64,000 bases of DNA, from the NCBI RefSeq assembly GCF_056746865.1, contig NZ_CM163382.1; one strand, 5' to 3'. This document shows, one piece after another, positions 5,292 to 37,768 of this stretch. The position numbers and the translations under genes were made by a program. Each line of letters starts with the position of its first letter. The stretch's first letter is position 1. The notes under the pieces are model-generated. The model did no database searches. It was given only the letters and a program-made list of their open reading frames with translations, and had not been told where the DNA came from.

Positions 5292-5402
5292 CGGGCACTG
5301 GCTGGCAATGTCTAGCAACGGCAGGCATTTCGGCTGAGGGTAAAAGAACTTTCCGCTAAGCGATAGACTGTATGTAAACACAGTATTGCAAGGACGCGGA
5401 AC

Positions 5403-5588: not shown

Positions 5589-6757
5589 CAAAGCCCGCGA
5601 CGCAGCGCCGGCAGGCAGAGCAAGTAGAGGGCAGCGCCTGCAATCCATGCCCACCCGTTCCACGTTGTTATAGAAGCCGCATAGATCGCCGTGAAGAGGA
5701 GGGGTCCGACGATCGAGGTCAGGCTGGTGAGCGCCGCCAGTGAGCCTTGCAGCTGCCCCTGACGTTCCTCATCCACCTGCCTGGACAACATTGCTTGCAG
5801 CGCCGGCATTCCGATGCCACCCGAAGCAAGCAGGACCATGATCGGGAACGCCATCCATCCCCGTGTCGCGAAGGCAAGCAGGATGTAGCCTGTGCCGTCG
5901 GCAATCATTCCGAGCATGAGTGCCCGCCTTTCGCCGAGCCGGGCGGCTACAGGGCCGGTGATCATTGCCTGGGCGAGTGAATGCAGAATGCCAAATGCGG
6001 CAAGCGAAATGCCGATCGTGGTCGCGTCCCAGTGAAAGCGATCCTCGCCGAAAATGACCCAAAGCGCGGCCGGCACCTGTCCGACAAGTTGCATGATGAA
6101 GAAGACCGCCATCAGGGCGGCGACGACGGTCATGCCCCGGGCCCACCGGAACGAAGCGAGCGGGTTGAGAGCCTCCCGGCGTAACGGCCGGCGTTCGCCT
6201 TTGTGCGACTCCGGCAAAAGGAAACAGCCCGTCAGGAAATTGAGGCCGTTCAAGGCTGCCGCGGCGAAGAACGGAGCGTGGGGGGAGAAACCGCCCATCA
6301 GCCCACCGAGCACAGGTCCCGCGACCATCCCGAACCCGAAACAGGCGCTCATGAAGCCGAAGTGCCGCGCGCGCTCATCGCCATCAGTGATATCGGCAAT
6401 ATAAGCGCCGGCTACCGCCCCAGTCGCCCCGGTGATGCCGGCCACGATCCGCCCGATATAGAGAACCCAAAGGAAAGGCGTCGTCGCCATGATGGCGTAG
6501 TCGACAGCAGCGCCGGCCAGCGAGACGAGCAAGACCGGCCGCCGCCCGAAACGATCCGACAGCGCGCCCAGCACAGGTGCGCAGGCAAATTGCATCAACG
6601 CATACAGCGCCAGCAGAATGCCATAGTGGGCGGTGACGTCGTTCGAGTGAACCAGATCGCGCAGGAGGCCCGGCAGCACCGGCATAATCAGGCCGATGCC
6701 GACAGCGTCGAGCGCGACAGTGCTCAGAATTACGATCAGGGGTCTGTTGGGTTTCAC
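5558..6757 (-). CDS. tetA: tetracycline efflux MFS transporter TetA, class A, GTG start, variant last 9 residues
   Basis: VKPNRPLIVILSTVALDAVGIGLIMPVLPGLLRDLVHS... matches TetA(A); divergent to tetR with operators between; C-terminal ...RGLWRNSSNSRCT differs from my recollection of canonical TetA(A). Confidence 0.9.
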   Translation of the reverse strand: MKPNRPLIVILSTVALDAVGIGLIMPVLPGLLRDLVHSNDVTAHYGILLALYALMQFACAPVLGALSDRFGRRPVLLVSLAGAAVDYAIMATTPFLWVLYIGRIVAGITGATGAVAGAYIADITDGDERARHFGFMSACFGFGMVAGPVLGGLMGGFSPHAPFFAAAALNGLNFLTGCFLLPESHKGERRPLRREALNPLASFRWARGMTVVAALMAVFFIMQLVGQVPAALWVIFGEDRFHWDATTIGISLAAFGILHSLAQAMITGPVAARLGERRALMLGMIADGTGYILLAFATRGWMAFPIMVLLASGGIGMPALQAMLSRQVDEERQGQLQGSLAALTSLTSIVGPLLFTAIYAASITTWNGWAWIAGAALYLLCLPALRRGLWRNSSNSRCT

Positions 6758-6805
6758 GTCTGGCCTCCGGACCAGCCTCCGCTGGTCCGATTGAACGCGC
6801 GGATT

Positions 6806-6854
6806 CTTTATCACTGATAAGTTGGTGGACATATTATGTTTATCAGTGATAAAG
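6806..6854. promoter_or_regulatory. tetA/tetR divergent promoter region with two palindromic tet operators
   Basis: TTTATCACTGATAAG and TTTATCAGTGATAAAG palindromes read directly between the divergent genes. Confidence 0.6.
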
Positions 6855-6862
6855 TGTCAAGC

Positions 6863-7513
6863 ATGACAAAGTTGCAGCCGAATACAGTGATCCGTGCCGC
6901 CCTGGACCTGTTGAACGAGGTCGGCGTAGACGGTCTGACGACACGCAAACTGGCGGAACGGTTGGGGGTTCAGCAGCCGGCGCTTTACTGGCACTTCAGG
7001 AACAAGCGGGCGCTGCTCGACGCACTGGCCGAAGCCATGCTGGCGGAGAATCATACGCATTCGGTGCCGAGAGCCGACGACGACTGGCGCTCATTTCTGA
7101 TCGGGAATGCCCGCAGCTTCAGGCAGGCGCTGCTCGCCTACCGCGATGGCGCGCGCATCCATGCCGGCACGCGACCGGGCGCACCGCAGATGGAAACGGC
7201 CGACGCGCAGCTTCGCTTCCTCTGCGAGGCGGGTTTTTCGGCCGGGGACGCCGTCAATGCGCTGATGACAATCAGCTACTTCACTGTTGGGGCCGTGCTT
7301 GAGGAGCAGGCCGGCGACAGCGATGCCGGCGAGCGCGGCGGCACCGTTGAACAGGCTCCGCTCTCGCCGCTGTTGCGGGCCGCGATAGACGCCTTCGACG
7401 AAGCCGATCCGGACGCAGCGTTCGAGCAGGGACTCGCGGTGATTGTCGATGGATTGGCGAAAAGGAGGCTCGTTGTCAGGAACGTTGAAGGACCGAGAAA
7501 GGGTGACGATTGA
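6863..7513 (+). CDS. tetR: tetracycline repressor TetR, class A
   Basis: MTKLQPNTVIRAALDLLNEVGVDGLTTRKLAERLGVQQPALYWHFRNKRALLDAL... matches TetR(A). Confidence 0.9.
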   Translation: MTKLQPNTVIRAALDLLNEVGVDGLTTRKLAERLGVQQPALYWHFRNKRALLDALAEAMLAENHTHSVPRADDDWRSFLIGNARSFRQALLAYRDGARIHAGTRPGAPQMETADAQLRFLCEAGFSAGDAVNALMTISYFTVGAVLEEQAGDSDAGERGGTVEQAPLSPLLRAAIDAFDEADPDAAFEQGLAVIVDGLAKRRLVVRNVEGPRKGDD

Positions 7514-19505: not shown

Positions 19506-20084
19506 ACCGCTAAGAACATGTTCCCGAAAATTGAGATAAACACGTTATGACAGCAACGTAAAATAAAACAGCGTTTTTTAGTCATAATGAACATGTAGAG
19601 TCCGTTTGTTCATACTCTGTGATTATCTCCATACGTTCATCTCTGGCGCTGCCAGATAGCGTTTTCGTTCTTACAGTCAATGCGCACCCGATACTGAATA
19701 TCGGCTTTCTTCCCCCGGGCGGTGAGATGCACTGTGACTAAATTATCACCTTTACTTACCAGCTCACGAAGATTCACCCAGACAACAGGATGCTGCTGAC
19801 TGAAGATCACCTAGTCATCTTTCCAGTGAAGCACCTGTTTCTGGAGATAGTCCCGTTTGACGCTGGCTGCAACAGCCGATGATTCCTGCCCTTCACATCG
19901 TGGAAAACTGACGGTTCTGTTTTTATCAGTAGCCAGTGATGATACACAAATACCGAAGGTGAGCAGAATTGAAGAGAGTGTTTTGTTTATTTACAGAACC
20001 CCATCATGGATAGCTCATTGTATTATTACTTTACATTTTAACAACATAAAATATCACTTTCAGAAGCAACAATCACATAACTTC

Positions 20085-21197
20085 TTATCCATTATTAATC
20101 ACCTTATACAACGGGAGCATCGCCGCGCCGCATGACGCACTCTGTGCTCCCATCGAAGAGGCAGCTAACTTCACTCTGGGGCGGTTGGGATCGAGGCAGG
20201 CTTCCATCAGTTGATTCAGTTCCTGCACCAGACGACTGATAATCGGTTTCGGCATCGCGCCACCGAGTACGATGATTTGCGGGTCTACCCACTGCACACA
20301 GCTGAAGAGCGTCTGCTCCACCTGGCCACGACAGCGTTCAAACCAGCTTTCCAGCAGTGGGTGCTGCCCGGCTATCAGCTCCGGTAGCTTAGTTTCACTG
20401 AATCCTTCACGCTCCAGTGTGGCAAGCAAATCCTTATACGACGGGCGCGGTGTACCGGATGGAAACGCCATCCCGACTTCACCGGCATTGCAGAACCCGC
20501 CGCGTAGCATTTTATTCCCGGAGATAATACCCGCGCCGATACCGTAGCCAAGGTCGATAAAGGTTAGATCGCTGTACGCATTCCATTTGCCGCTGTACAG
20601 TTCACCTACCGCCGAGGCGTTGGCATTATTTTCCACCCACGTCGGCCACGGCAGGTTGTCGGCAAACGCCTGCTGGAGATCTACCTCACGCCAGCTCTCC
20701 AGCCACGGTACGCTGTGGCGCTTGCGACCATCCGCTTTCAGAAATCCGGGCACTGCATAGCCAATGCCGAGAATACGTGCGTGCTGGAGCTGGCGCTTTT
20801 TCAGCATTTTCTCCACCAAGGTTTTGATCTGCGCGAGAGAGGCCTCCAGTGGCTGATTCTCCTGATGTGCTTCGCAAAGCGACAGCAGCTGGCGACCACT
20901 GAGATCGACCACCGTCATATCGATAAAACCGGGACTGAACGACAACCCGATAGCACAACCGCCGCCGGGGTTAAGGCGCAACGGCAGCGACGGCTGGCCG
21001 CGCTGCCCGGTATTGCGCTCCCCTTCCACCACCAGGCCGGAGAACATCAGCTCTCGGCACTGTTGGGTGATCGCCCCCGCCGTCAGTCCCGACAGCCGTG
21101 CCAGTTCAGCCCGCGTCACCGGGGCGTGGAGACGGATCAGTTCCAGCAGCAGGCGCTGCGAACCACGTAGTTCAAGGCGTTCAGAGTGGGCGTTCAT
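20085..21197 (-). CDS. ROK-family transcriptional regulator (NagC/Mlc-like)
   Basis: 370 aa with N-terminal HTH and ROK sugar-kinase-like fold motifs. Confidence 0.75.
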   Translation of the reverse strand: MNAHSERLELRGSQRLLLELIRLHAPVTRAELARLSGLTAGAITQQCRELMFSGLVVEGERNTGQRGQPSLPLRLNPGGGCAIGLSFSPGFIDMTVVDLSGRQLLSLCEAHQENQPLEASLAQIKTLVEKMLKKRQLQHARILGIGYAVPGFLKADGRKRHSVPWLESWREVDLQQAFADNLPWPTWVENNANASAVGELYSGKWNAYSDLTFIDLGYGIGAGIISGNKMLRGGFCNAGEVGMAFPSGTPRPSYKDLLATLEREGFSETKLPELIAGQHPLLESWFERCRGQVEQTLFSCVQWVDPQIIVLGGAMPKPIISRLVQELNQLMEACLDPNRPRVKLAASSMGAQSASCGAAMLPLYKVINNG

Positions 21198-21212
21198 GGT
21201 GTCCTTATTTTT

Positions 21213-22043
21213 CTAGTTCCAGCGCAGGCCTGCTTCTTCAATCAGTCCCTGCAAATACGGAATATCATCGTGGCTGAGCATATCAATCAGCCCCGCCTGC
21301 ATCCAGCCGATAATCACCGGACGACTGTCACAGCCGAATTTATAGTCGTACTGCTCCAGCGGCGTCATGCCGTTTTTCATTTCATGCAGATACATCCGCA
21401 CGCCCAGTCCGGCATTTTTGTAGGCCCGCAGGTCGTCGATATGGGCGAACTCGAACTCAAAGCAGACGCATCCGGCATTGGACTGCTGTACAGCCGCAAG
21501 CTGGTTATTGTAGCGCTCCAGCGTCACCACCTGTAACGCCAGTTGCGGGATTTGCGCCTTCACCCGGTTGATCAGCACATGGTTGAAGCCCAGCAACTGG
21601 ATATGGCCGAGGGCATCCAGATGCTCATGCAGCAGTGCGACCAGCGCCGCCACAAACTCGTCATGGCGGTTGCGCTGTTTGACCTCAACAATCAGCCCCA
21701 TGCTGTTTTCCACCGCCCAGCGCAGCACGTCCGCCAGCAAGGGGATGCGCGTTCCGGCAAACGACGGATGGTATTTCACGCCAAAGTCGCACGCCAGCAG
21801 CTGCGGGTACGTCATCTGCTCCACAAATCCGTGTCCGGTGGATACCCGGTCGATACGGTGATCGTGCGTGACCACCAGTTGGTTATCCGCCGTCAGGTGG
21901 ATATCGATTTCAATACAGTGGGTTCCCGCCAGGCGGGCGGCTTCAAAGGCCGGGAATGTGTTCTCCGGCGCGCAGCTGGAATAACCTCGGTGGCTGTTGG
22001 CCAGCACGATCCCCTCTGCCGCCCGGTGAAAGTTAAACGCCAT
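21213..22043 (-). CDS. glycerophosphodiester phosphodiesterase family protein
   Basis: GP-PDE motifs HRG...PENT...EIDIHLT...HD in the 276-aa product. Confidence 0.8.
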   Translation of the reverse strand: MAFNFHRAAEGIVLANSHRGYSSCAPENTFPAFEAARLAGTHCIEIDIHLTADNQLVVTHDHRIDRVSTGHGFVEQMTYPQLLACDFGVKYHPSFAGTRIPLLADVLRWAVENSMGLIVEVKQRNRHDEFVAALVALLHEHLDALGHIQLLGFNHVLINRVKAQIPQLALQVVTLERYNNQLAAVQQSNAGCVCFEFEFAHIDDLRAYKNAGLGVRMYLHEMKNGMTPLEQYDYKFGCDSRPVIIGWMQAGLIDMLSHDDIPYLQGLIEEAGLRWN

Positions 22044-22258
22044 CTTCTTTTCCTCTCGAATGTAAGATGGTAATTAACTTTACTACTTAAATTTAAATGT
22101 GAAAGATGTTTTTGTTATTTTATGGTTAACCCATTGTTTTATATGCTTTTAATTTGATATTTAGATCATTTTTTAGCTTTAAGGATCTGTGTCACATAAA
22201 TTTAATGTTTAGTATGTAAATTTAATAATCATCTTTTTAACCGATGGAAGAGAGACTC

Positions 22259-23326
22259 ATGTCAAAACTGGTTCTGGAACAGGTGACCAAAACCTTCGGC
22301 GAATTCTATGCCGCCAGAGAAATCTCGTTCTGCGCCGAAGAGGGGGAGTTCGTGACCCTGCTTGGGCCGAGCGGCTGCGGTAAAACCACCCTGCTGAAAA
22401 TGATCGGCGGTTTTCACCAGCCGGACAGCGGACGCATTCTTATTGGCGATAAAACGGTCAACGCCCTGCCGCCAGAAAAGCGCAATACCGCCATGTGTTT
22501 CCAGTCCTATGCGCTGTTTCCGCACCTCAACGTGGCACACAACATCTGCTTCGGCCTGAAGCAGAAAAAAGTCGCTATCAGTGAACAGCAGGACCGGCTG
22601 ACGGAGGCGCTGAAGCAGGTGGGGCTGGAGAGCCAGCGCCTGAAAATGCCCGCCCAGCTCTCCGGCGGCCAGCAGCAGCGCGTGGCGCTGGCGCGGGCGA
22701 TGATCACCCGCCCGGACGTGATCCTGTTCGACGAACCTCTCTCCAACCTTGATGCCAAGCTGCGCGAAAGCGTGCGTTTTGAAATCAAGGAACTCCAGCG
22801 GCAGTATCAGCTCACCTCGATCTACGTCACACACGACCAGGCGGAAGCGCTGGCGATGTCGGATAAAATTGTGGTGCTGAACGCCGGTAATGTTGAGCAA
22901 ATAGGCAAACCGGAAGAGATTTACTACCGTCCGGCCAACCGCTTTGTGGCCGACTTTATCGGCGCGGCCAATATCGACACCGCGCAGGTCACGCCCTCAG
23001 AGCAGCCGGGCTATTACCGGGTACGCTGTGCCCTCGGCGAGTTTTATGTGCATTCCGTACAGCCGCCACGCACAGAGCACTGCTATATCTGCTGGCGACC
23101 GGAAGATGCGCAGTATGTCAGCCAGCCTCAGGCAGGCAACAACCACTTCTCCCTGACGCTCGACAAAATGGCCTTTATGGGCAACCTCACCGAAGCCTGG
23201 GGCCACAACGACAGCGGGTTATCGGTCCGCTTACAGCTAATTAAAAAGCCGCCCGTCGCCCCCGGCGAGAGTGCCTGCTTCCGTCTGGCGGAAAACGCCA
23301 TCCATTTTCTGGAGCCGGTATCATGA
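22259..23326 (+). CDS. ABC transporter ATP-binding protein (PotA/FbpC/MalK type)
   Basis: Walker [10 protein letters not shown], signature [14 protein letters not shown], Walker [12 protein letters not shown]. Confidence 0.85.
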
Positions 23327-24189
23327 AAAACTGGCGCAATGATGCGGTCGCCTGGCTGCTGATGCTCAGCGGGCTGGGCACGATCCTACTACTGATGGGA
23401 TCGACGTTTTATGTGGTGATCGTCCAGAGCCTGGGCTGGTTCAACATCGAAGGCGACAGCAATTTCTCGCTGGAATACTGGCGCAATATGTTGCAGGACG
23501 AAGTGTTGCAAAGCGCCCTGTTCTACTCAGTGAAAGTGTCACTGCTGGGGGCGTTCGGCTCGGTGATTTTCGCCTATCCGCTGGCGCTGTGGCTGCGTAA
23601 ACCGATGGCCTATAAAGAGGGCATTATCGCGGTGCTGCGTGCGCCGATGTTTATCCCCGGTCTGGTGGCGGCGTTTCTGTTCGTCAATATCGTCGCTTAT
23701 CACGGCATTATCAACGAACTGCTGCTGGCGCTGGGGATTATCAGCGAGCCGCTGCGGATGCAGAACGATGACTTCGGCTGGGGCGTGGTTATCCTGCAAA
23801 TCTGGAAAAACCTGCCCTTCGCCCTGATCCTCGTCGGCGGCGCAGTCAACGCCATCCGTAACGACGTGCTGGACGCCGCCAGCAATCTCGGTGCCAGCCG
23901 CTGGCGCAGTTTTACCGGCGTGGTGGTGCCGCTGACGCTGCCCGCCGTGCAGGTGACGCTGATTCTGGTATTTATCGGCGCGCTGGGCGACTTCGCCTTC
24001 TTCTCGGTGGCCGGGCCACGCAACACCTACTCGCTGGCGCGGCTGATGCAGGCCACCGCCATGGAGTACGGCGAGTGGAATAACGCGGCGGTGATTGCGG
24101 TGATCATTATGGTCACGGCGGCCATCTGCACGTTGCTGATTGCCACACTGATTACCCCGTTCGCCACCCGCAAAGGAGAGGTCAAATGA
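23323..24189 (+). CDS. ABC transporter permease
   Basis: 288-aa polytopic membrane protein; start overlaps ATPase stop. Confidence 0.8.
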   Translation: MKNWRNDAVAWLLMLSGLGTILLLMGSTFYVVIVQSLGWFNIEGDSNFSLEYWRNMLQDEVLQSALFYSVKVSLLGAFGSVIFAYPLALWLRKPMAYKEGIIAVLRAPMFIPGLVAAFLFVNIVAYHGIINELLLALGIISEPLRMQNDDFGWGVVILQIWKNLPFALILVGGAVNAIRNDVLDAASNLGASRWRSFTGVVVPLTLPAVQVTLILVFIGALGDFAFFSVAGPRNTYSLARLMQATAMEYGEWNNAAVIAVIIMVTAAICTLLIATLITPFATRKGEVK

Positions 24190-25022
24190 GCCACACTGCC
24201 AACGGTCGCCGGGTGGTGACGATTTCGCTGATCTTCTTCGTGGTCGCTAATCTGATCTGGCTGGGTATGCCGTTCGGCATGGCGATCCTCTGGTCGCTGG
24301 TTGACCCGGCCCATCCGTGGAGCTACCCGGATATCTTCCCGCCGGTGCTGTCGTTCAGCCGCTGGCTGCTGGTATGGGAAAAGACTTCGCTTTCCGAGGC
24401 GCTGTTCAACAGCTACACCATTGCGCCTGCGGTAGCGGTCGCCAGCCTGCTGCTGTCGCTACCCACCGCGTATGCCTTCGGGCGCATGACCTTTCGCGGT
24501 AAGGCGGTGGCGGAGATGCTGACGCTGATCCCGCTGGTGATGCCGGGGATGCTGATCGGGATTTTTTTCAGCGCCATGCTGATCAACCTCAATATCGACA
24601 ACGCGTTTATCAGCATTGTTATCGGCCATACGGTACTGACGCTACCCTATTCGATCCGCATTATGTCTGCGGGGTTTAAGTCTGTGCCGCAGGATCTGAT
24701 CGACGCCAGCCGCGACCTGGGCTCCGGCGCGTGGGACACCTTCTGCAATGCCTATCTGCCGCTGTTAAAACCGAGCTTCCTGGCGGCGCTGATTTTTTGT
24801 CTGGTGCGAAGCCTGGAAGAGTTCGGCATCTCATACGTGCTGGGCGCGCCGGACTTTATCACCGTTCCGACCATTCTTTACTCTTTCCTTGGCTACTCCT
24901 TCGTCCGCCCGGATGCGGCGGTGGTGTCGATGATTCTGGTGATCCCCAATGTCATCCTGATGGTCATCATTGAGAAGTTGCTGAAGGGGAACTATCTGTC
25001 GCAATCCACGGGAAAAGCCTGA
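24186..25022 (+). CDS. ABC transporter permease
   Basis: 278-aa polytopic membrane protein; overlapping start. Confidence 0.8.
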   Translation: MSHTANGRRVVTISLIFFVVANLIWLGMPFGMAILWSLVDPAHPWSYPDIFPPVLSFSRWLLVWEKTSLSEALFNSYTIAPAVAVASLLLSLPTAYAFGRMTFRGKAVAEMLTLIPLVMPGMLIGIFFSAMLINLNIDNAFISIVIGHTVLTLPYSIRIMSAGFKSVPQDLIDASRDLGSGAWDTFCNAYLPLLKPSFLAALIFCLVRSLEEFGISYVLGAPDFITVPTILYSFLGYSFVRPDAAVVSMILVIPNVILMVIIEKLLKGNYLSQSTGKA

Positions 25023-25043
25023 CCTTTTACAGGAGATAATGTG

Positions 25044-26120
25044 ATGAAAAAAACAGTGATGATTCTGGCGGGCGGCCTGCTGTGCAGCTCGCTGGCAACG
25101 GCGGCGGATAGCCCCGACCTGATTGCCCAAGCGAAAAAAGAGGGCAGCGTGACCTTTAACGTCTGGTACTTACAGCCGCAGTGGCGCAGCTTTGTGAAGG
25201 ATTTTGAGCAGCAGTACGGCGTTAAGGTGCGCATCCCGGAAGGGAATATCGACGGAAACGTGAACAAGTTGCTGGCAGAAGCGGGGAAAAAAAGGGGTAA
25301 AATAGATGTTATCGCCTTGTCTGTTGCGCAACTGCCAGTGGCAATGGGAGCGAAAGCGCTGGCGAAGGTGGACGATTTGCCGGGCTATGGCGACGCCATT
25401 CACCAGATTCAGAACGTTGACACCCAGGGTTATGCCGTGGCGTTCTGGGGCAACCAGACCGGATTTGCTTACGACCCGCAGCAGATGGGTGACCGGGCGC
25501 TGCCACAAACGCTGGAGCAGTTGCAGAGCTTTATCGACGCCAACCCGAAAAAGTTCGGCTATAACGACCCGAACAACGGCGGCGCGGGGGAAGCCTTTAT
25601 CCAGCGCATCGTCACTACTCAGGGCGACACGTTTAACAGCGAAGCGGAGAGCGTTGACCCGGCAGTGGTGAAAAACTGGCAGAAAGGCTGGCAGTGGTTT
25701 GCTGCTAATAAGGACAAAATTACCCGCACGGCCTCCGGTGCTGATAGTCTGACACGCCTGAATGACGGCGAGCTGATGCTGACACCATCCTGGGAAGACC
25801 ATCTTGTCGGACTACAAAAAACCGGGGCTATCAATTCGCGGCTGAAATTTTACGTACCGGAGTTTGGCATGCCTGGCGGCGGTAACATCGCTGCCATTGC
25901 CGCCAACAGCCCACATCCGGCGGCATCACGCTTATTCCTCAACTGGCTGATTCAGCCTGAAACGCAACATGCACTGAGTAAAGTCTTCGGCTCCACGCCG
26001 ATGAACAAACAGCTCCGTCCGGATCTGAATGAGATCCCGGAGCCCACGGTGGAGTTTTATGGCAAAGCGTACAGTACACAGCTCAAAAAAGATTTCGTTC
26101 GTGAGGTCATGATGCAGTAA
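25044..26120 (+). CDS. ABC transporter periplasmic substrate-binding protein
   Basis: Signal peptide MKKTVMILAGGLLCSSLATA; size and position fit a solute-binding protein; substrate unknown. Confidence 0.7.
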   Translation: MKKTVMILAGGLLCSSLATAADSPDLIAQAKKEGSVTFNVWYLQPQWRSFVKDFEQQYGVKVRIPEGNIDGNVNKLLAEAGKKRGKIDVIALSVAQLPVAMGAKALAKVDDLPGYGDAIHQIQNVDTQGYAVAFWGNQTGFAYDPQQMGDRALPQTLEQLQSFIDANPKKFGYNDPNNGGAGEAFIQRIVTTQGDTFNSEAESVDPAVVKNWQKGWQWFAANKDKITRTASGADSLTRLNDGELMLTPSWEDHLVGLQKTGAINSRLKFYVPEFGMPGGGNIAAIAANSPHPAASRLFLNWLIQPETQHALSKVFGSTPMNKQLRPDLNEIPEPTVEFYGKAYSTQLKKDFVREVMMQ

Positions 26121-26215
26121 GCTTCATTTCGCGCACAGCCATCCCCCTGAAATCTGGCTGACTGTTATTTCGCAACAGTTATTGAGTAAATCTTTAACCT
26201 GTTAACAGAGGGTTT

Positions 26216-26740
26216 ATGAAACGTAAACTTATTGCCTTTGTGATTCTGGCTACATCATCCTGTGGATATGCAGCCACCAAAGATGTAACAATGAATCTTG
26301 TTGATAGTGACGGAAAAGAGCGAAATATTGGTAAAATAACCATCCAGAAGACACCCTACGGGCTGCTGTTCACCCCTGATCTTCACTCCTTACCCGCCGG
26401 CATTCATGGTTTTCATGTACATGAAAACGCAAGTTGTGCTCCTGCCCTGAAAGATGGAAAAACTGTCGCTGCTTTATCTGCAGGTGGTCACTTTGACCCG
26501 GAAAAAACAGGGAAGCATCTCGGTCCATGGTCTCCTGATGGCCACCTGGGTGATCTCCCTGCGCTTTATGTCACTCATGACGGAAAAGCAACCTACCCGG
26601 TGCTTGCGCCAAGACTATCTGAATTAAAGGAGCTCGATGGCCGTTCGCTAATGCTCCACGCAGGAGGTGATAATCATGATGACCATCCTGAACCTCTAGG
26701 TGGCGGTGGTGCAAGAATTGCCTGTGGTATCATCCCATAA
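26216..26740 (+). CDS. sodC: periplasmic Cu/Zn superoxide dismutase
   Basis: Signal peptide plus Cu/Zn-SOD motifs [12 protein letters not shown] and [12 protein letters not shown]. Confidence 0.85.
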
Positions 26741-26868
26741 TCAATCAGGTAAGGGATATCCTCCCTTACCCTTAATCTTCCCTGGCTGCATGTGCATATC
26801 TTTCAGTTACTGTGAGATACCTGTATTACGGTGTCTTTTTAGCTCACAGAAATATCAGACAGCCCGTT

Positions 26869-27093
26869 TCAGTGTTTTATTACCTTAATCTTTTTACGGC
26901 ATTCTTCAGCTCTTGCGCATGCTATTTTTTCACCTGTTTCATAACATTGCTGGCAGCCTAATCCAAATTTCATCGCCATATCATAACCTTCCCGAAAACC
27001 TCGGAACCACGCGTTACGAAGGTATTCATCATATTCCCCGCAGTCAATAATAACCATTTTATTTTCATGGGATTTTCCGGTATTCTCACTCAT
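26869..27093 (-). CDS. hypothetical small Cys-containing protein (74 aa)
   Basis: ATG at 27093 with GAGG RBS; five Cys; no family recognised. Confidence 0.3.
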   Translation of the reverse strand: MSENTGKSHENKMVIIDCGEYDEYLRNAWFRGFREGYDMAMKFGLGCQQCYETGEKIACARAEECRKKIKVIKH

Positions 27094-30651: not shown

Positions 30652-31257
30652 ATGTCCAATAAAGAACTCATTACAGAATTTCTGCTGGCGGCAGAACAAG
30701 GTAATTCCGATGGATTAAAATCATGCCTTGATAAAAAGGTTGATATTAATGCGACTAACCGCGAGGGGCGTACTGCAATTATTATTGCCAGTCTGAATAA
30801 ACATTATGACTGCGTTTCTTTATTGATTTCCGCAGGTGCTGATATTAATAAACAAGATCAAACTTGTTTTAATCCCTTCCTGATTGGCTGCCTGAATAAT
30901 GATTTAACACTGTTGCGTACGGTATTACCGGCTAACCCCGACCTTAATTGCCTAACCCGTTTTGGCGGTGTTGGTATTACACCTGCCTGCGAAAAAGGCC
31001 ATGTCGAGATTGTACGTGAATTGCTGATGCGTACTGATATCAATGTCAACCATACTAATTTTGTTGGCTGGACGCCGCTCCTAGAGGCCATCGTGCTGAA
31101 TGACGGCGGTGAAAAGCAGCAGGAGATCGTCAAACTGTTGCTTGAGCATGGCGCAAACCCGCACATGACGGATAAATACGGTAAAACCCCGCTGGAGCTG
31201 GCGCGAGAAAAAGGCTACCACAAAATTGCCGAGTTGCTGATTTCGGCTGGAGCCTGA
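30652..31257 (+). CDS. ankyrin-repeat protein (YahD-like)
   Basis: 201 aa with ankyrin repeats (GRTAIIIASLNKHYDCVSLLISAGADIN; GWTPLLEAI; GKTPLELAREKGYHKIAELLISAGA). Confidence 0.8.
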   Translation: MSNKELITEFLLAAEQGNSDGLKSCLDKKVDINATNREGRTAIIIASLNKHYDCVSLLISAGADINKQDQTCFNPFLIGCLNNDLTLLRTVLPANPDLNCLTRFGGVGITPACEKGHVEIVRELLMRTDINVNHTNFVGWTPLLEAIVLNDGGEKQQEIVKLLLEHGANPHMTDKYGKTPLELAREKGYHKIAELLISAGA

Positions 31258-31342
31258 CAACAGGAGCACGATTATCGCTATATTATCACGGCAATCTTTT
31301 CGGGCACTAACCGCAGACTGCGCGTTTCTCACTTTTCGGGGA

Positions 31343-32191
31343 ATGGGCCAGGTTGAACAGGTTTTTTCCCATGCGGTAAATCTGTTAATACCTGAACAGC
31401 AGCGACTGCTGACGTTACTGAGTGAGGATTGTGATAACGCACCTAACAGTTGTCGTTTAGCACTGACACATTATGAAGACCTTTTTCACCCCGGTGAACA
31501 GGTCAATTTTAGCGGGTCTGGAATAACTGTTGGAAATGATAAATGGATAGAAATAACCGGTTGTCAGATGTGGCGAATACCACGGTGGACATCTGATTCA
31601 GCAAGCCTTGCCAAAGTCGGCTGGCAGCATTGGGAAGAGTTTATCCGCCAACAACTAAGAAGCAACGACACATTATTTCTGTACCAGGGTGACAATCCAT
31701 TTTATCAGGAAATTTCTCGCCAATTACTCAACCGCCGAAAAAATTTGCTGAAGGCGTTGTGTACAGGAGAAAACATCACTGCGGCAGTCAACCAGTTAAT
31801 TGGTCTTGGAATAGGGCTGACGCCATCATCGGATGATTATTTAGTAGGTTTAAGCACTATTTTATTTATTCAAGGACATCCACTAAGGAAGTATAGATAC
31901 GATTTCTTAGCAGCATTACAACTTGCAGGAAATAACATAACGCTTCTCAGCAAAATAACGTTAGAGGAAGCATTTAATCAGCGTTATCGGGAAAGAGTCG
32001 GACGGCTACTGAACCAATTTATTACTGAGCCACAACCCATTTCTACGCAATATGTTACTGACATAAAAAATATAGGCTCAAGTTCTGGATGCGACATGCT
32101 GTATGGCATGGCGGATGCCTGCGCCCTGAGCCACAGGTCCGGAGGTAATTATGTCAATCAGGATAGTTGTAAAAAAAAACACGTATTTTGA
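31343..32191 (+). CDS. DUF2877-like protein (YahE/YlbF-like)
   Basis: 282 aa; size and position match the yahE/ylbF partner of FdrA-like genes; called by synteny and recollection. Confidence 0.5.
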   Translation: MGQVEQVFSHAVNLLIPEQQRLLTLLSEDCDNAPNSCRLALTHYEDLFHPGEQVNFSGSGITVGNDKWIEITGCQMWRIPRWTSDSASLAKVGWQHWEEFIRQQLRSNDTLFLYQGDNPFYQEISRQLLNRRKNLLKALCTGENITAAVNQLIGLGIGLTPSSDDYLVGLSTILFIQGHPLRKYRYDFLAALQLAGNNITLLSKITLEEAFNQRYRERVGRLLNQFITEPQPISTQYVTDIKNIGSSSGCDMLYGMADACALSHRSGGNYVNQDSCKKKHVF

Positions 32192-33698
32192 TTCTGTTTC
32201 ACTGATGTCTATCTCCACGCGCGCAAATAAGCTTGATGGAGTTGAGCAGGCATTTGTTGCTATGGCGACAGAGATGAATAAGGGGGTGCTGAAGAATCTC
32301 GGTCTGCTGACCCCTGAGCTGGAAGAGGCGAAAAGTGGCGATCTGATGATTGTCATTAAAGGTACCAGCGAGGAGGCGAACGAGCGGACGCTAATAGCGA
32401 TTGATGAGCTGTTTGCGCATAAAGAACAGGGAGGCCAGCACGAAGCACGCTATGCCACGATTGCCAGTGCGAAGAAGCATGCTCCAGAGAGTAATCTGGC
32501 GGTGATCTCTGTCAATGGCCTGTTTGCTGCTCGTGAAGCTCGTCAGGCACTACAAAATAACCTCAATGTTATGCTGTTTTCTGACAACGTCTCTCTTGAG
32601 GACGAGCTGGAACTCAAGCATCTGGCACATGAAAAAGGGTTGTTGATGATGGGGCCTGATTGTGGAACCGCCATCATTAACGGCGCAGCGTTGTGTTTTG
32701 GCAATGCAGTGCGTCGCGGCAACATCGGAATCATTGGTGCCTCCGGTACGGGTAGCCAGGAGCTGAGCGTACGCATTCACGAATTTGGCGGCGGGATTTC
32801 CCAGCTGATTGGGACAGGTGGACGCGATATGAGTGAAAAAATTGGCGGCCTGATGATGCTTGACGCGATTAGCATGCTGGAGGCCGATCCACAAACTGAG
32901 ATCATTACGCTTATATCCAAACCTCCTGCACCAGCGGTAGCCCGTAAGGTGCTGGAACGTGCGCGCACCTGTCACAAGCCTGTGGTGGTGTGTTTCCTCG
33001 GACGTGAGTCCACCCCTGCGGATGAAGAAGGCCTACAGTTTGCCCGCGGTACTAAAGAGGCTGCCTTGAAAGCGGTACTGTTGACTGGTGTGAAAAAAGA
33101 GAGTCTGGATTTGCATCCGCTCAACTGGCAGCTGATTGAAGAGGTTCGCTCCCGTCTGACTCCACAACAAAAGTATATCCGTGGCCTGTTCTGTGGTGGC
33201 ACGTTATGCGATGAAGCGATGTTTACTGCCATGGAAAAACTCTCGGATGTGTATAGCAATATTCACCCGAATCCGGCGTTCCGCCTTACAGATCTCAACC
33301 GTAGCGTGGCGCATACCTTCCTCGATTTCGGCGATGATTATTTTACCAACGGCAAACCACATCCGATGATCGATCCCACCAATCGCATTACCCGGCTCTT
33401 GCAGGAAGCACAGGATCCTGAAGTTGGCGTGATCGTGATGGACTTCATTCTTGGATTTGGATCACATGAAGATCCGGTTGGAGTGATGCTGGATACAATT
33501 GTTGAAGCCAAAGAAATTGCTGCCGCAGACGGTCGCCCGCTTGAGATCCTCGGCTATGTGCTGGGAACCGACCTTGATACACCGTCGCTGAAAAAACAGT
33601 GTCAGATGTTGACCGATGCCGGGGTTATTTGGGCAAGCAGTAGCACCAACACCGGATTACTGGCACGTGAATTTATATTTAAAGGGGAGGAAGGCTGA
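32151..33698 (+). CDS. FdrA/YahF-like CoA-ligase-fold protein
   Basis: 515 aa, MSIRIVVKKNTYFDSVSLMSIS... typical of FdrA/YahF; RBS GGAGG before ATG. Confidence 0.75.
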   Translation: MSIRIVVKKNTYFDSVSLMSISTRANKLDGVEQAFVAMATEMNKGVLKNLGLLTPELEEAKSGDLMIVIKGTSEEANERTLIAIDELFAHKEQGGQHEARYATIASAKKHAPESNLAVISVNGLFAAREARQALQNNLNVMLFSDNVSLEDELELKHLAHEKGLLMMGPDCGTAIINGAALCFGNAVRRGNIGIIGASGTGSQELSVRIHEFGGGISQLIGTGGRDMSEKIGGLMMLDAISMLEADPQTEIITLISKPPAPAVARKVLERARTCHKPVVVCFLGRESTPADEEGLQFARGTKEAALKAVLLTGVKKESLDLHPLNWQLIEEVRSRLTPQQKYIRGLFCGGTLCDEAMFTAMEKLSDVYSNIHPNPAFRLTDLNRSVAHTFLDFGDDYFTNGKPHPMIDPTNRITRLLQEAQDPEVGVIVMDFILGFGSHEDPVGVMLDTIVEAKEIAAADGRPLEILGYVLGTDLDTPSLKKQCQMLTDAGVIWASSSTNTGLLAREFIFKGEEG

Positions 33699-35116
33699 TG
33701 AGCCAGACACTGTTTAATCAGCCGCTGAACGTTATTAATGTCGGTATCGAAATGTTCAGCGATGACATGAAAAAGCAGAATGTACCGGTAACCCAACTTG
33801 ACTGGACACCGCCAGGCCAAGGAAACATACAAGTGGTAACGGCACTGGACGACATTGCCGCTTCACCACTGGCAGACAAAATTGCAGCTGCTAATCAGCT
33901 GGCGCTGGAACGCATTATCCAGTCGCATCCTGTGCTAATTGGCTATGATCAGGCGATCAACGTCGTGCCGGGTATGACCCGTAACACTATCCTTCACGCC
34001 GGGCCGCCAATCCACTGGGAAAAAATGTGCGGCGCAATGAAGGGCGCAGTAACCGGGGCTCTGGTATTTGAAGGACTGGCGAAAGATCTGGATGATGCCG
34101 CCGAACTAGCTGCTTCAGGTGAAATCATCTTCTCTCCGTGCCACGAACATGACTGTGTCGGCTCAATGGCGGGTGTCACGTCTGCATCGATGTTTATGCA
34201 CATCGTCGAGAACAAAACCTATGGAAACCGCGCATATACCAATATGAGCGAGCAGATGGCAAAGATCCTGCGTATGGGCGCTAACGACCAGAGCGTTATA
34301 GAGCGTCTTAACTGGATGCGAGATGTACTGGGACCTATGTTGCGCGATGCTATGAAGCTGGCGGGCGAAATCGATCTGCACTTGATGTTAGCGCAGGCGC
34401 TGCATATGGGCGATGAGTGCCATAACCGCAACAACGCCGGGACGGCGCTGCTGATTCAGACGCTGACGCCGTGGATTATTCAGACTGGCTACCCTGTTGA
34501 GCAGCAGCGTGAGGTGTTCGAGTTTGTCCTCAGTAGTGATTACTTCTCAGGACCAACATGGATGGCAATGTGTAAAGCCGCAATGGACGCTGCGCACGGC
34601 ATTGAATACAGCACCGTGGTGACAACGATGGCACGCAATGGTGTTGAGTTCGGTCTTCGTATTAGCGGTTTGCCGGGCAAGTGGTTTACCGGTCCGGCGC
34701 AGCAGGTGATTGGGCCGATGTTTGCGGGCTATAAGCTAGAGGATTCCGGACGTGATATCGGTGATAGTGCAATTACCGAAACCTACGGCGTTGGCGGTTT
34801 CGCTATGGCGACGGCACCAGCTATTGTGTCACTGGTGGGCGGAACAGTTGAGGAAGCTATTGATTTCTCACGTAAAATGAGAGAAATCACTCTCGGAGAA
34901 AACCCCAACGTCACCATTCCCCTGCTTGGTTTTATGGGCGTACCGACCGCTATCGATATTACGCGTGTAGGCAGTACAGGCATTCTGCCGGTAATTAACA
35001 CAGCCATTGCGCACAAAGACGCAGGGATCGGCATGATCGGCGCAGGAATTGTTCACCCGCCGTTCACTTGTTTTGAAAAGGCGATCCTCAACTGGCGTGA
35101 CCACTACTGCCAATAA
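33698..35116 (+). CDS. DUF1116-like protein (YahG/YlbE-like)
   Basis: 472 aa; start overlaps FdrA-like stop; size and synteny match yahG. Confidence 0.6.
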   Translation: MSQTLFNQPLNVINVGIEMFSDDMKKQNVPVTQLDWTPPGQGNIQVVTALDDIAASPLADKIAAANQLALERIIQSHPVLIGYDQAINVVPGMTRNTILHAGPPIHWEKMCGAMKGAVTGALVFEGLAKDLDDAAELAASGEIIFSPCHEHDCVGSMAGVTSASMFMHIVENKTYGNRAYTNMSEQMAKILRMGANDQSVIERLNWMRDVLGPMLRDAMKLAGEIDLHLMLAQALHMGDECHNRNNAGTALLIQTLTPWIIQTGYPVEQQREVFEFVLSSDYFSGPTWMAMCKAAMDAAHGIEYSTVVTTMARNGVEFGLRISGLPGKWFTGPAQQVIGPMFAGYKLEDSGRDIGDSAITETYGVGGFAMATAPAIVSLVGGTVEEAIDFSRKMREITLGENPNVTIPLLGFMGVPTAIDITRVGSTGILPVINTAIAHKDAGIGMIGAGIVHPPFTCFEKAILNWRDHYCQ

Positions 35117-35228
35117 CAATAACCGGGGCTAACGCAGTTAGCCCCACAGTAGCGGAAAACGTTGTTTACCTTCAGGGCTGGGCGATCTCCATGATCGCAA
35201 ACGATGCTTAACCTGTTAAGGAGATTCC

Positions 35229-36779
35229 ATGAACAGCATAAAACTAGAATGGAAACGTGGTGACTGGGCGGCTTACTTTGGACTGATGACCAACAATCTG
35301 ACTAACCTGCTGACAATGATGGGTCTGCTAATTTTTGTCGTCGGAATCCCTACTGAAATTGTCTATGGACGCATTGCGCCTGCCTTTGGTCTTGCAGTGC
35401 TGGCGGCCAGTGTCTGCTACTCCTGGTTTGGTCTACAGATGGTGAAGAAAACCGGTCGTAGCGATGTAACGGCGCTGCCGTCTGGACCGAGCGCACCCTC
35501 AATCTTTACCGTGACATTCCTGGTGCTGATGCCGGTTTATCAGCAAACCAAAGATGCCAACTTTGCTATTCAGATAGGATTGGTGTGGTGCTTTGTCGAA
35601 GCGTTGATCCTGGTCGGTGGCTCCTTCCTGGGTGAGACTATCCGCAAGATGATCCCGCGTACAGTGCTGCTTTCTTGTCTGTCCGGACTGGGGTTATTAC
35701 TGCTGGCAATGAACCCGATGCTGCAAGCGTTCGAAGCGCCGACAGTTTCTTTCATCGTCCTGTTATTGATCTTCATTAACTGGTTCGGTAAGAAGCCGAT
35801 TTTTCCCCATATTCCTACCGGTTTGCTGTTGCTGATTGCTGGTACGTCCCTAGCGTGGATATCCGGTTTACAAAGCCCGGAAGACATTAAAGCGTCGATG
35901 TCTTCCTTCGGCTTCAACCCGCCGGAAATTCATGTAAGGAGCTTCCTGCAAGGTTTGCCGCACGCTCTGCCATATCTGGCTTCTGCAGTTCCTTTGGGCC
36001 TGGCTAACTACATTTTTGACCTCGAGAACATTGAAAGTGCGCACGCGGCTGGTGATGAATACAACACCCGTAAGGTCATGATGGCGAACGGCTTTGCCTC
36101 CATGCTCGGTTGCATGCTGGGTAATCCGTTCCCGGTAACCGTATATGTTGGGCATGCAGGCTGGAAAGCTATGGGCGCTAGTATCTGCTATACCCTCGCA
36201 TCAGGCATCACTATGTTTCTGGTGCCATTGTTTGGGTTGGGCGCGTTTATGCTCGCCATTATTCCCATGACTGCTATAGTGCCAATTCTGGTTTTTATCG
36301 GTGTGGTAACCGCCAATCAGGTGGTGCGAGAAACTCCTAAAGTCGAGGTTCCCGTCATTTTCATCTGTCTGTTCCCATGGGTCGCCAACTGGGCATTGAC
36401 CATCGTTAACAGCGTGATGGGCGCAGCCGGAACATCCGCTGAGAAACTTGGTAGCGACCTGTTGCACAGCAAAGGCGTCTATTACGATGGACTGATGCAT
36501 CTGGGAAGCGGTGCACCGCTGGCCAGCATGCTGTGGGGATGCATTGCTATCTTTGCCATTATGAATAAGCCGCTGCGCGGGGCGATAGCTGCATCCTTTG
36601 GAGCACTGTTATCGCTGTTTGGCGTGATTCACTCCCCAGCGGTTGGCTTTGCGGAAGGCGGCTCGATTGTGTTTGTTGTGGCCTACCTGATGATGCTTGC
36701 TATGTTTGCCCTCAAGCATGTTATTGATAGCCGTGAAACAGTGGCTGCGTCTGAGCAGGAAGAGACTAAAACGACCTGA
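35229..36779 (+). CDS. putative permease (possibly nucleobase/AzgA-like; family uncertain)
   Basis: 516-aa polytopic membrane protein inside the yah-like operon. Confidence 0.5.
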   Translation: MNSIKLEWKRGDWAAYFGLMTNNLTNLLTMMGLLIFVVGIPTEIVYGRIAPAFGLAVLAASVCYSWFGLQMVKKTGRSDVTALPSGPSAPSIFTVTFLVLMPVYQQTKDANFAIQIGLVWCFVEALILVGGSFLGETIRKMIPRTVLLSCLSGLGLLLLAMNPMLQAFEAPTVSFIVLLLIFINWFGKKPIFPHIPTGLLLLIAGTSLAWISGLQSPEDIKASMSSFGFNPPEIHVRSFLQGLPHALPYLASAVPLGLANYIFDLENIESAHAAGDEYNTRKVMMANGFASMLGCMLGNPFPVTVYVGHAGWKAMGASICYTLASGITMFLVPLFGLGAFMLAIIPMTAIVPILVFIGVVTANQVVRETPKVEVPVIFICLFPWVANWALTIVNSVMGAAGTSAEKLGSDLLHSKGVYYDGLMHLGSGAPLASMLWGCIAIFAIMNKPLRGAIAASFGALLSLFGVIHSPAVGFAEGGSIVFVVAYLMMLAMFALKHVIDSRETVAASEQEETKTT

Positions 36780-36805
36780 ATAGCCTGCAAACGGAAGATA
36801 ATTCT

Positions 36806-37768
36806 ATGAAAGAACTTGTGGTCGTTGCCATTGGTGGCAACAGCATTATCAAAGATAACGCCAGCCAGTCGATTGAGCATCAGGCGGAGGCGGTGAAGGC
36901 CGTCGCCGATACGGTTCTGGAAATGCTGGCTTCCGATTACGACATTGTGCTGACCCACGGCAACGGGCCGCAGGTCGGTCTGGATTTACGCCGCGCGGAG
37001 ATAGCCCACGAGCGCGAAGGGCTACCCTTAACGCCGCTGGCGAACTGTGTGGCGGATACGCAAGGCGGCATTGGCTATCTGATCCAGCAGGCGCTGAACA
37101 ACCGGCTGGCGCCTCTCGGCGAGAAAAAAGCCGTCACCGTGGTGACTCAGGTGGAAGTGGATAAAAACGATCCGGGGTTTGTCCATCCCACCAAGCCCAT
37201 CGGTGCATTCTTTAGTGAAAACCAGCGTGATGAACTACAAAAGGCAAACCCTGACTGGCGTTTTGTTGAAGATGCCGGACGGGGCTATCGCCGCGTGGTC
37301 GCCTCGCCGGAACCGAAACGTATTGTCGAAGCACCTGCCATTAAGACTCTGATCCAGCAAGGCTTTGTGGTGATTGGCGCGGGCGGCGGTGGCATTCCGG
37401 TGGTGCGTACTGACGCAGGGGATTACCAAAGCGTGGACGCGGTTATCGACAAAGATCTCTCTAGCGCGCTACTGGCTCGCGAAATTCACGCCGACATTCT
37501 GGTGATCACCACCGGCGTGGAAAAAGTGAGTATTCATTTTGGGAAACCCAACCAGCATGCACTGGATACAGTGGATGTCCTAACGATGGCCCGTTACATG
37601 CAGGAGGGTCACTTCCCGCCTGGGAGTATGTTACCGAAGATTCTTGCCAGTCTGGAGTTCCTGGAACGTGGAGGTAAAAGAGTGATTATCACCACGCCTG
37701 AATGCCTGTCCGCGGCACTGCGTGGCGAAACAGGCACCCATATTATCCACTCCCAAGAGGAGACGTAA
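36806..37768 (+). CDS. carbamate kinase (YahI/ArcC-like)
   Basis: MKELVVVAIGGNSI...LTHGNGPQVG... amino-acid-kinase family carbamate kinase motifs. Confidence 0.85.
   Translation: MKELVVVAIGGNSIIKDNASQSIEHQAEAVKAVADTVLEMLASDYDIVLTHGNGPQVGLDLRRAEIAHEREGLPLTPLANCVADTQGGIGYLIQQALNNRLAPLGEKKAVTVVTQVEVDKNDPGFVHPTKPIGAFFSENQRDELQKANPDWRFVEDAGRGYRRVVASPEPKRIVEAPAIKTLIQQGFVVIGAGGGGIPVVRTDAGDYQSVDAVIDKDLSSALLAREIHADILVITTGVEKVSIHFGKPNQHALDTVDVLTMARYMQEGHFPPGSMLPKILASLEFLERGGKRVIITTPECLSAALRGETGTHIIHSQEET

Follow-up and report, generated by a model that had tools for sequence, protein, structure and literature searches.

To our knowledge, sugar phosphodiesters have so far been established as private nutrients only in plant pathogens, as agrocinopines in Agrobacterium and, since late 2025, as xanthosan in Xanthomonas. 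Here we describe a locus of an Escherichia coli chromosome that has likenesses to both systems: genes for a ROK-family regulator, a glycerophosphodiester phosphodiesterase (GDPD) and a four-gene ATP-binding cassette (ABC) importer, found at positions 20085–26120 of a 64,000-nucleotide (nt) stretch of contig NZ_CM163382.1 (assembly GCF_056746865.1), which we refer to as the window. The acc operon of plasmid pAtK84b (accR, accA–E, accF and accG; agrocinopine A/B) likewise combines an ABC importer with a cytoplasmic GDPD-family enzyme for a sugar phosphodiester. In the xanthosan system, AvrBs2, a GDPD-derived enzyme related to agrocinopine synthase, makes xanthosan, a cyclic galactose-phosphate dimer, which is taken up by XanT and hydrolysed by XanP to galactose-1-phosphate, and the cluster also encodes the ROK regulator XanR (Wang et al., Science 2025, PMC12807533). 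Animal pathogens that have AvrBs2-like proteins have been speculated to act alike, with uptake and catabolic genes not named (PMC12807533).

The E. coli locus appears from its sequence to join an AccF-like enzyme and a XanR-like regulator to a transporter type used by neither known system. A candidate uptake and catabolic locus can thus be named, consisting of a ROK-regulated PotABCD-like importer and an AccF-like phosphodiesterase; it occurs in E. coli, Salmonella, Klebsiella, Yersinia, Providencia, Proteus, Pasteurella and Vibrio, and has among its physical neighbours AvrBs2-like proteins (four genera), XanP orthologues (two genera) and, on Ti plasmids, T-DNA. Taken as a whole, the locus is best explained as a horizontally acquired nutrient module in which two divergent operons share one ROK-controlled spacer, a reading to which we give a probability of roughly 0.58. 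Our literature searches turned up no published work on the block itself, and the link came by way of the agrocinopine, ROK and glycerophosphodiester literature. The reading offers a functional hypothesis for genes so far annotated only generically and makes the speculation on animal-host sugar-phosphodiester nutrients directly testable in tractable enteric bacteria.

A regulator, a phosphodiesterase and an ABC importer occur together in two proteobacterial classes

A first-pass annotation, made from the DNA letters, had read positions 20085–26740 of the window as a block of seven genes, and all seven open reading frames are intact where it placed them, each with a strong profile match that confirms its family. 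On the minus strand, a GDPD gene (21213–22043, 276 amino acids (aa), PF03009, E 8e-27) is followed after 15 nt by a ROK regulator gene (20085–21197, PF00480, E 4e-24, with an N-terminal winged helix-turn-helix domain, HTH_24), and both diverge, across an AT-rich control region of 215 nt and 25% GC (22044–22258), from the importer genes on the plus strand. These encode an ATPase (22259–23326, PF00005, E 4e-36), a PotB/PhnU-like permease (23323–24189), a PotC/PhnV-like permease (24186–25022), both permeases with BPD_transp_1 domains, and a periplasmic solute-binding protein of 358 aa (25044–26120, SBP_bac_8, E 5e-31). Each permease gene overlaps the gene before it by 4 nt, as ATGA in both cases, and the binding-protein gene begins 18–21 nt after the second permease gene. 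The tight spacing and the overlaps therefore point to two divergent operons around the 215-nt spacer, with GDPD the first and ROK the second gene of the minus-strand operon. The ATPase is likely to start at 22259, after the putative ribosome-binding site GGAAGAGAG and as in RefSeq, with an upstream ATG at 22244 as the alternative, and the binding protein is likely to start at 25044, again as in RefSeq, with 25041 as the alternative.

To place the six genes from ROK to the binding protein in context, we compared them with 23 related loci from Gamma- and Alphaproteobacteria, all outside the E. coli island in which the block lies. A ROK gene is adjacent in 20 of the 23 loci, and a gene for a small, cytoplasmic, signal-less GDPD in 18. 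The same six genes in the same arrangement are present in Salmonella (proteins 90.5–98.6% identical), where an integrative element that also encodes a TraI_2 relaxase and an integrase carries them, in Klebsiella, E. fergusonii and two divergent E. coli, where they are inserted between rsmJ and dtpB, and also in Providencia, Proteus, Lelliottia, a second Salmonella lineage, Pantoea, Kosakonia and on a plasmid of Vibrio scophthalmi. Elsewhere the order changes. Pasteurella multocida has GDPD divergent and ROK downstream; four alphaproteobacterial loci and the Agrobacterium plasmids have ROK divergent and GDPD directly 3′ of the binding-protein gene and co-oriented with it; V. coralliilyticus and V. 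bivalvicida are without GDPD and have ROK, a 2H-phosphodiesterase and a phosphohexomutase; and Basfia and Aggregatibacter have the transporter alone. Homologues of the binding protein number 425 and come mainly from Enterobacterales, Pasteurellaceae and Vibrionaceae, with more distant ones in Alphaproteobacteria and on Agrobacterium plasmids, and a peptide-pattern scan of genome contigs, which was not a systematic survey, yielded at least six true relatives, four of them alphaproteobacterial.

Because the association of regulator, phosphodiesterase and importer survives rearrangement of gene order from Enterobacterales to Alphaproteobacteria, a functional link among them is well supported, and we hold with considerable confidence that positions 20085–26120 constitute a ROK-linked unit for phosphodiester uptake and cytoplasmic cleavage. 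This bears out the suggestion of the first-pass annotation that these genes serve uptake and hydrolysis of a phosphodiester-containing compound. The annotation had named a combination that would speak against its suggestion, a binding protein of an unrelated class such as the polyamine type together with a GDPD gene not co-transcribed with the importer. The binding protein is not of the polyamine type, so this combination does not arise. The E. coli GDPD gene is divergent and not co-transcribed with the importer; it runs in the same direction as the binding-protein gene in the alphaproteobacterial relatives and Agrobacterium, and is divergent in Enterobacterales, V. scophthalmi and Pasteurella.

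Neighbouring genes in related loci point to a sugar phosphodiester

On the V. scophthalmi plasmid pVS127, whose GDPD and binding protein are 61% and 49% identical to those of E. coli, the GDPD-ROK operon is divergent from the ABC genes and runs on into galE, galT and a gene for an EEP phosphoesterase. The pVS127 cluster contains no galK, and the presence of galT and galE without it argues that the pathway receives galactose-1-phosphate directly, the compound that XanP releases from xanthosan. In V. coralliilyticus and V. bivalvicida, the 2H-phosphodiesterase and a phosphohexomutase of the PGM/PMM kind adjoin the ABC genes and ROK, which points to a hexose-1-phosphate product. Downstream of the ABC and ROK genes, the same two Vibrio loci (V. 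coralliilyticus L007, 12453–15392; V. bivalvicida L009, 12465–15404) encode a conserved 533-aa protein that has no Pfam match and a GT4-type glycosyltransferase, possibly parts of a different producer pathway. The ROK-GDPD operon of Pantoea and Kosakonia is joined by a gene for a DUF1868 2H-phosphodiesterase, the product of which is 50% identical to Xanthomonas XanP orthologues encoded in a cluster of AvrBs2, ROK, TonB-dependent transporter and 2H genes; the HxT and HxS motifs of the Xanthomonas 2H proteins lie one residue off the positions reported for XanP. Among the other relatives, the Pasteurella multocida locus has an extra gene for a Cof-type sugar phosphatase, and that of a metagenome-assembled proteobacterium (L010) an extra gene of the inositol monophosphatase (IMPase) family. 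Porin genes stand directly beside the module in the second Salmonella lineage (L073, 11231–12280) and in L010 (11949–13163), which suggests a dedicated outer-membrane entry route.

A further set of added genes is that of Agrobacterium Ti and opine plasmids, namely pTi_CFBP2407 (L071/L075) and a plasmid of A. vitis F2/5 (L072). Here ROK is divergent from an operon that encodes the ATPase, two permeases, the binding protein, GDPD, an IMPase and a Na/Pi transporter, and then (an aldose epimerase), a sucrose phosphorylase, (an alpha-galactosidase) and TraR. According to the pAtK84b annotation and alignments made here, the acc operon has the same downstream enzyme set, with AccF, AccG, a Na/Pi symporter, galM and sucrose phosphorylase, and AccG is 34% identical to the Ti-plasmid IMPase; these Agrobacterium relatives of the E. 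coli transporter thus carry an acc-like set of AccG-like IMPase, Na/Pi symporter, aldose epimerase and sucrose phosphorylase. The operon lies beside the T-DNA, an edge gene of which (364 aa) has a weak, acs-like GDPD signature, and it may be the catabolic locus for an acs-like T-DNA product in a conjugation-inducing opine system. The differences between the acc system and the E. coli block lie in the transporter, an oligopeptide-type system by annotation in acc, with two ATPases and a binding protein of 520 aa, and a PotABCD-like one in E. coli, with one ATPase and a binding protein of 358 aa, and in the regulator, which in acc is the 257-aa repressor AccR (pAtK84b) and in E. coli a ROK protein. 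Furthermore, the E. coli window has neither an AccG-like IMPase gene, which is confined to the Agrobacterium and L010 relatives, nor a link to an opine synthase.

No glycerol-3-phosphate (glp, ugp) or polyamine genes are seen in any of the 23 related loci. Taken together, the gene context favours, as the probable substrate, a hexose phosphodiester akin to agrocinopine or xanthosan over a classical glycerophosphodiester. The glycerophosphodiester that the first-pass annotation had implied is the less likely of the two, given that the neighbours in the relatives are galT-galE, phosphohexomutase, XanP-type and sucrose phosphorylase genes.

Family placement of the phosphodiesterase and the importer

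The catalytic residues of the GDPD (H18/R19, E45/D47, H60 and E120/K122) are all present in an alignment to 2pz0 and the UgpQ structure 2otd, and the protein is cytoplasmic and without a signal peptide. It thus has the pair of catalytic histidines and the Glu/Asp/Glu metal ligands that define the TIM-barrel GDPD domain. It fails the equivalog score of the UgpQ-type NCBIfam model NF006989 (107 bits, cutoff 264). With AccF, the agrocinopine phosphodiesterase of pAtK84b, it shares 33% identity over 260 of 276 aa, and it scores 118 bits against AccF by BLASTP and 66 bits against UgpQ by phmmer, two different scoring methods whose comparison is indicative only.

The importer has the A-B-C-D order, with a single ATPase, a pair of BPD_transp_1 permeases and a binding protein of the SBP_bac_8/6/11 type. 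The earlier description of it as PotA-type holds only approximately: the ATPase is matched best by PhnT2, UgpC and PotA models, all of them below their equivalog cutoffs. PotABCD-like importers (for polyamines, opines and phosphonates) and AfuABC have this gene order in common with it, together with permease and ATPase similarity.

The binding protein, which has a Sec signal ending …SSLATA/ADS, was classified by profile models as the first-pass annotation had proposed; it is not a PotD/PotF equivalog and reaches no equivalog cutoff. Its best model match is PRK11622 (60 bits, cutoff 203); it matches SBP_bac_1 and SBP_bac_8 generically, and no UgpB model matched. The profile search gave no match to the PotD or PotF polyamine models at E ≤ 1e-5. 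In a search of solved-structure sequences, made for the substrate, the matches were weak (E ≥ 2e-5), fell on uncharacterised and ferric-binding proteins, and assign no substrate. When an AlphaFold model of the protein (pLDDT 90.8) was compared with the PDB by Foldseek, all matches were at most 19% identical, with the uncharacterised structures 5t1p, 3pu5 and 4edp first and FbpA/HitA, PhnS, PotD and AfuA among the others; the nearest structures span binders of iron, polyamines, phosphonates, sugar phosphates and oligosaccharides. The modelled fold, which is common to FbpA, PotD, PhnS, AfuA and VcA0625, puts the protein in the iron/polyamine/sugar-phosphate binding-protein group, with no close characterised relative.

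E. coli itself has an importer with a cytoplasmic GDPD-family enzyme in UgpBAEC-UgpQ (and GlpT/GlpQ). The block differs from Ugp in gene order, in the PotD/PhnS-like model matches of its binding protein, in its ROK regulator and in having no glycerol-3-phosphate context.

The ROK regulator and a candidate operator

The ROK protein scores far under the Mlc and NagC equivalog cutoffs (74 bits against 530–650) and is 62% identical to the Providencia copy and 58% identical to the Pantoea copy. It aligns end to end with Xanthomonas XanR (28% over 366 aa, E 1e-39). A ROK regulator is common to the block and the xanthosan system, though the two proteins need not be orthologous. The divergent spacer holds an operator-like element, GTCACAnAAnTTTAAT-N10-TAAATTTAAT, at 22191–22229, with its two repeats 20 bp, or about two helical turns, apart; the segment GTCACATAAATTTAATGTTTAGTATGTAAATTTAAT (22191–22226) lies 30–70 nt upstream of the ATPase start. 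TAAATTTAA(T) occurs three times in the spacer, the third time at 22088–22097. Across nine enterobacterial loci of seven genera, the element hardly changes, whereas the rest of the spacer has diverged. We regard these conserved repeats as candidate ROK operators for both operons.

Within an inverted repeat of the xanR-xanT spacer of Xanthomonas (102 nt, 55% GC) lies TTAATTTAAT, which departs from the enterobacterial motif at one position, and by a rough estimate the chance of a match as good as this is well under 1%. The inverted repeat of the GC-rich xanR-xanT spacer of X. prunicola (L078, 7231–7332), TTTAATTAAG-cag-CTTAATTTAA, is a candidate XanR operator by its likeness to the TAAATTTAAT repeats of the enterobacterial spacers.

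Large exported GDPD proteins adjoin the unit in four enterobacterial lineages

In Providencia, Proteus, Lelliottia and the second Salmonella lineage, the block is directly adjoined by genes for large GDPD proteins of 574–814 aa, which are 38–45% identical among themselves; the Providencia gene lies at 2888–4816 of L067, and positions 12405–16012 of L073 encode those of Salmonella. The 642-aa Providencia protein matches AvrBs2 with 27% identity over 193 aa in a pairwise alignment, and the 645-aa Proteus protein matches the AvrBs2 gene with 32% identity over 161 aa by tblastn; the two matches, with E values of 9e-14 and 3e-9, mark a distant relation. Homologues of the large GDPDs are found in Providencia stuartii, Salmonella, Corynebacterium and Trueperella, for all of which AvrBs2-like proteins have been listed by PSI-BLAST (PMC12807533). 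Further likenesses of the relatives to the xanthosan system are the XanP-type 2H proteins of Pantoea and Kosakonia and, more distantly, AvrBs2-like GDPDs in four enterobacterial genera. Some relatives of the large GDPDs (P0165 and P0166) carry ricin-type beta-trefoil lectin domains; together with the Sec signals or lipobox of the large GDPDs, these domains suggest that the proteins may act outside the bacterium on glycoconjugates, not inside host cells. P0166 is attributed to a metagenome-assembled genome of Renibacterium salmoninarum, and the lectin domains hint at a carbohydrate-directed extracellular activity.

sodC belongs to a separate mobile module

The seventh gene of the block, sodC (26216–26740, plus strand), encodes a Cu/Zn superoxide dismutase with an N-terminal periplasmic signal, read from the translation. 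The protein is SodCI-like (NF007628, 218 bits against a cutoff of 165; PF00080, E 6e-32) and scores nearer to Salmonella SodCI (6d52/1eqw, 221 bits) than to E. coli SodC (1eso, 191 bits). The first-pass annotation had counted it as the oxidative-stress arm of a host-adaptation module. However, sodC is adjacent in none of the 23 related loci. Clear homology to the orthologous Salmonella block ends at about 26143, some 23 nt past the binding-protein stop, with only a looser likeness as far as about 26165; where the sodC module occurs without the ABC block it begins at 26152, and GC drops at this junction, which we place at 26144–26165. A 924-bp sodC piece (26041–26964) is present in 125 of 5426 complete E. 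coli genomes, mostly without the transporter and against 22 genomes with the six-gene unit, and it is also found without the ABC block on E. coli and E. albertii plasmids. The module further includes a small hypothetical gene and an IS3 remnant, and a bidirectional hairpin terminator lies 3′ of sodC (26748–26770, terminator scan). Like Salmonella SodCI, which is carried by the Gifsy-2 prophage, the gene is mobile, although its vehicles are islands rich in insertion sequences (IS) and plasmids rather than a prophage, and it has no functional tie to the transporter. We therefore conclude that sodC is very probably an unrelated passenger, a separate mobile SodCI-like module, and the attractive pairing of nutrient and oxidative defence would then be a local accident of island assembly.

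That the seven genes, sodC included, are instead one co-selected and co-transcribed host-adaptation operon, combining nutrient uptake with protection from the oxidative burst, is improbable on the same evidence of absence from related loci, broken homology and GC, and wider distribution. It draws on the gap of only 95 nt between the binding-protein stop and the sodC start, in which the terminator scan found no canonical terminator, and possibly sodC is read through from the ABC operon; by eye, a weak long-loop hairpin (CAGCCA, 13 nt, TGGCTG) and then a T-rich run follow the binding-protein stop, which counts against it. It draws also on the age of the junction. Many sodC copies retain nested 3′ remnants of the binding-protein gene, of 995, 414, 320 or 80 bp, and APEC O2-211 has an orphaned, almost whole binding-protein gene; these nested remnants indicate that the junction is old and that the transporter has been eroded repeatedly and sodC retained.

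A proposed pathway and its alternatives

In the pathway that we propose, the periplasmic binding protein would catch a small anionic hexose phosphodiester, the ABC importer would move it to the cytoplasm, and the signal-less AccF-like GDPD would split it into sugar and/or hexose phosphate, which E. coli enzymes of galactose metabolism (Leloir), phosphoglucomutase or phosphatases could take further. ROK would repress both operons at the TAAATTTAAT repeats until a sugar-derived effector appears. The counterpart in Xanthomonas differs in using a TonB-dependent outer-membrane transporter and a periplasmic XanP with a Tat signal, as opposed to the ABC importer and cytoplasmic GDPD cleavage of E. 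coli. By tblastn, XanP, XanT and an AvrBs2-like synthase are not found in the window, and without a producer enzyme in the window E. coli would be a consumer. A wider reading, which we offer as tentative and think rather doubtful as a whole, is that an animal-host version of the AvrBs2/xanthosan/agrocinopine "made-to-order nutrient" strategy exists and that the transporter family supplies its missing arm for inner-membrane uptake and utilisation. Starting from nucleotide sugars or from glycoconjugates of the host or its microbiota, the exported GDPDs of Salmonella, Providencia, Proteus and Lelliottia would make a private sugar phosphodiester, and the E. coli island, which comes mostly from poultry isolates, would be the consumer half, carried by scavengers or cheaters on the nutrient of others or on a sugar phosphodiester derived from diet or host.

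Several observations weigh against a sugar-phosphodiester pathway of this kind. GDPD enzymes have glycerophosphodiesters as their canonical substrates, and the best NCBIfam match of the E. coli GDPD is the UgpQ-type model, albeit below its cutoff; against the GDPD of the Agrobacterium ROK-type locus, the E. coli enzyme scores only 80 bits over 121 aa. The 28% identity to XanR falls in the range seen between non-orthologous ROK regulators. The binding protein is only 38–56% identical to those of the informative relatives, and the genes that make these relatives informative (galT/galE, mutase, IMPase, 2H-phosphodiesterase and the synthase-like gene) are absent from the E. coli block; moreover, since the accessory genes vary among taxa, the substrate probably varies too. 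The substrate class proposed for the transporter family is read from gene neighbourhoods. On the producer side, the large GDPDs, being exported or lipoproteins, are unlike the type III effector AvrBs2, the Providencia 642-aa GDPD matched no Ti-plasmid acs gene in a tblastn search of the plasmids at E ≤ 1e-6, and the Lelliottia-type large GDPD gene was found in no E. coli genome by blastn, at the DNA level only.

With a classical glycerophosphodiester as substrate, the locus would be a second, Pho-independent Ugp/UgpQ-like system that scavenges glycerophosphocholine, -ethanolamine, -inositol or -glycerol from the breakdown of host or dietary phospholipids, the GDPD yielding glycerol-3-phosphate. 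The complete catalytic residues and the UgpQ-type best model are what such a system would have; in addition, the binding protein is weakly like 2-aminoethylphosphonate binders, whose ligands of amine and phosphorus resemble glycerophosphoethanolamine, and the IMPase and EEP neighbours of some relatives could suit glycerophosphoinositol. However, the score against that model is less than half its cutoff, glp and ugp genes occur in 0 of 23 loci, the adjacent regulator belongs to the sugar-responsive ROK family, where GlpR or Pho control would be expected, the neighbours include galT-galE, phosphohexomutase, sucrose phosphorylase, alpha-galactosidase and a XanP orthologue, and the scores against AccF and UgpQ, as far as they can be compared, lean to AccF. 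We therefore consider this reading unlikely.

We give still less weight to uptake of cyclic or monoester head-group phosphates, such as inositol- or glycerol-cyclic phosphates, which would be freed from lipids or glycoconjugates of host or microbes by the large GDPDs acting as exported enzymes of the phospholipase D or phosphatidylinositol-specific phospholipase C kind, with the small GDPD or a 2H enzyme opening the ring. The large GDPDs are Sec-exported or lipoproteins and some homologues have ricin-type lectin domains, IMPase and EEP neighbours occur, and 2H-phosphoesterases classically open cyclic phosphates; yet the demonstrated activity of a XanP-type 2H enzyme is on an ordinary sugar phosphodiester ring, with galactose-1-phosphate as product, galT/galE, mutase and sucrose phosphorylase do not suit inositol or glycerol products, and inositol catabolic genes are not seen beside the gammaproteobacterial loci. 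An importer of polyamines or other non-phosphorylated solutes, of the PotABCD type and beside the phosphodiesterase by chance, would explain the order of ATPase, permease, permease and binding protein, the permease similarity, and the name "putative spermidine/putrescine" binding protein that some databases give to homologues. With GDPD adjacent in 18 and ROK in 20 of the 23 loci, in two classes of proteobacteria, chance can be set aside, and we reject the polyamine reading, which is very improbable, on the ground that the binding protein matched no PotD or PotF model.

A rare unit in a mosaic island

The hexose-phosphodiester module that we favour sits in an IS-rich mosaic island of the E. 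coli chromosome, and E. coli AR_0085 and about 20 other strains have chromosomes that match the window region with 100% identity. GC is 55–59% in the block and 36–45% in its flanks, and the complete six-gene unit is present in 22 of 5426 complete E. coli genomes, in agreement with the earlier view of the block as accessory. Twenty of the 22 copies are at least 99.6% identical, with at least 12 of these 20 from chicken or chicken meat, and the remaining two are only 77% identical. The unit is horizontally acquired and rare, and its E. coli carriers are mostly associated with poultry.

The left edge of the imported block is marked by a yebF-family pseudogene (19637–19936, minus strand), which has an internal stop and lies directly upstream of ROK. 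Farther out in the same mosaic island lie genes for a 1291-aa serine-protease autotransporter (12840–16715, minus strand), closest to the haemoglobin protease Hbp/Tsh (1263 bits to 1wxr), and, adjoining it, a low-GC AbgT-family transporter (17027–18586, minus strand). Between lsrK and IS66 copies, at about 2942–6980, a cluster of about 60% GC encodes ascorbate-type phosphotransferase system components IIA, IIB and IIC, a carbohydrate kinase and a class II fructose-bisphosphate aldolase, and resembles another foreign sugar-utilisation cassette. On the other side, at about 30652–37768 and downstream of a LysR gene, are genes for an ankyrin-repeat protein, a DUF2877 protein, FdrA, a DUF1116 protein, a 516-aa hypothetical protein and a carbamate kinase.

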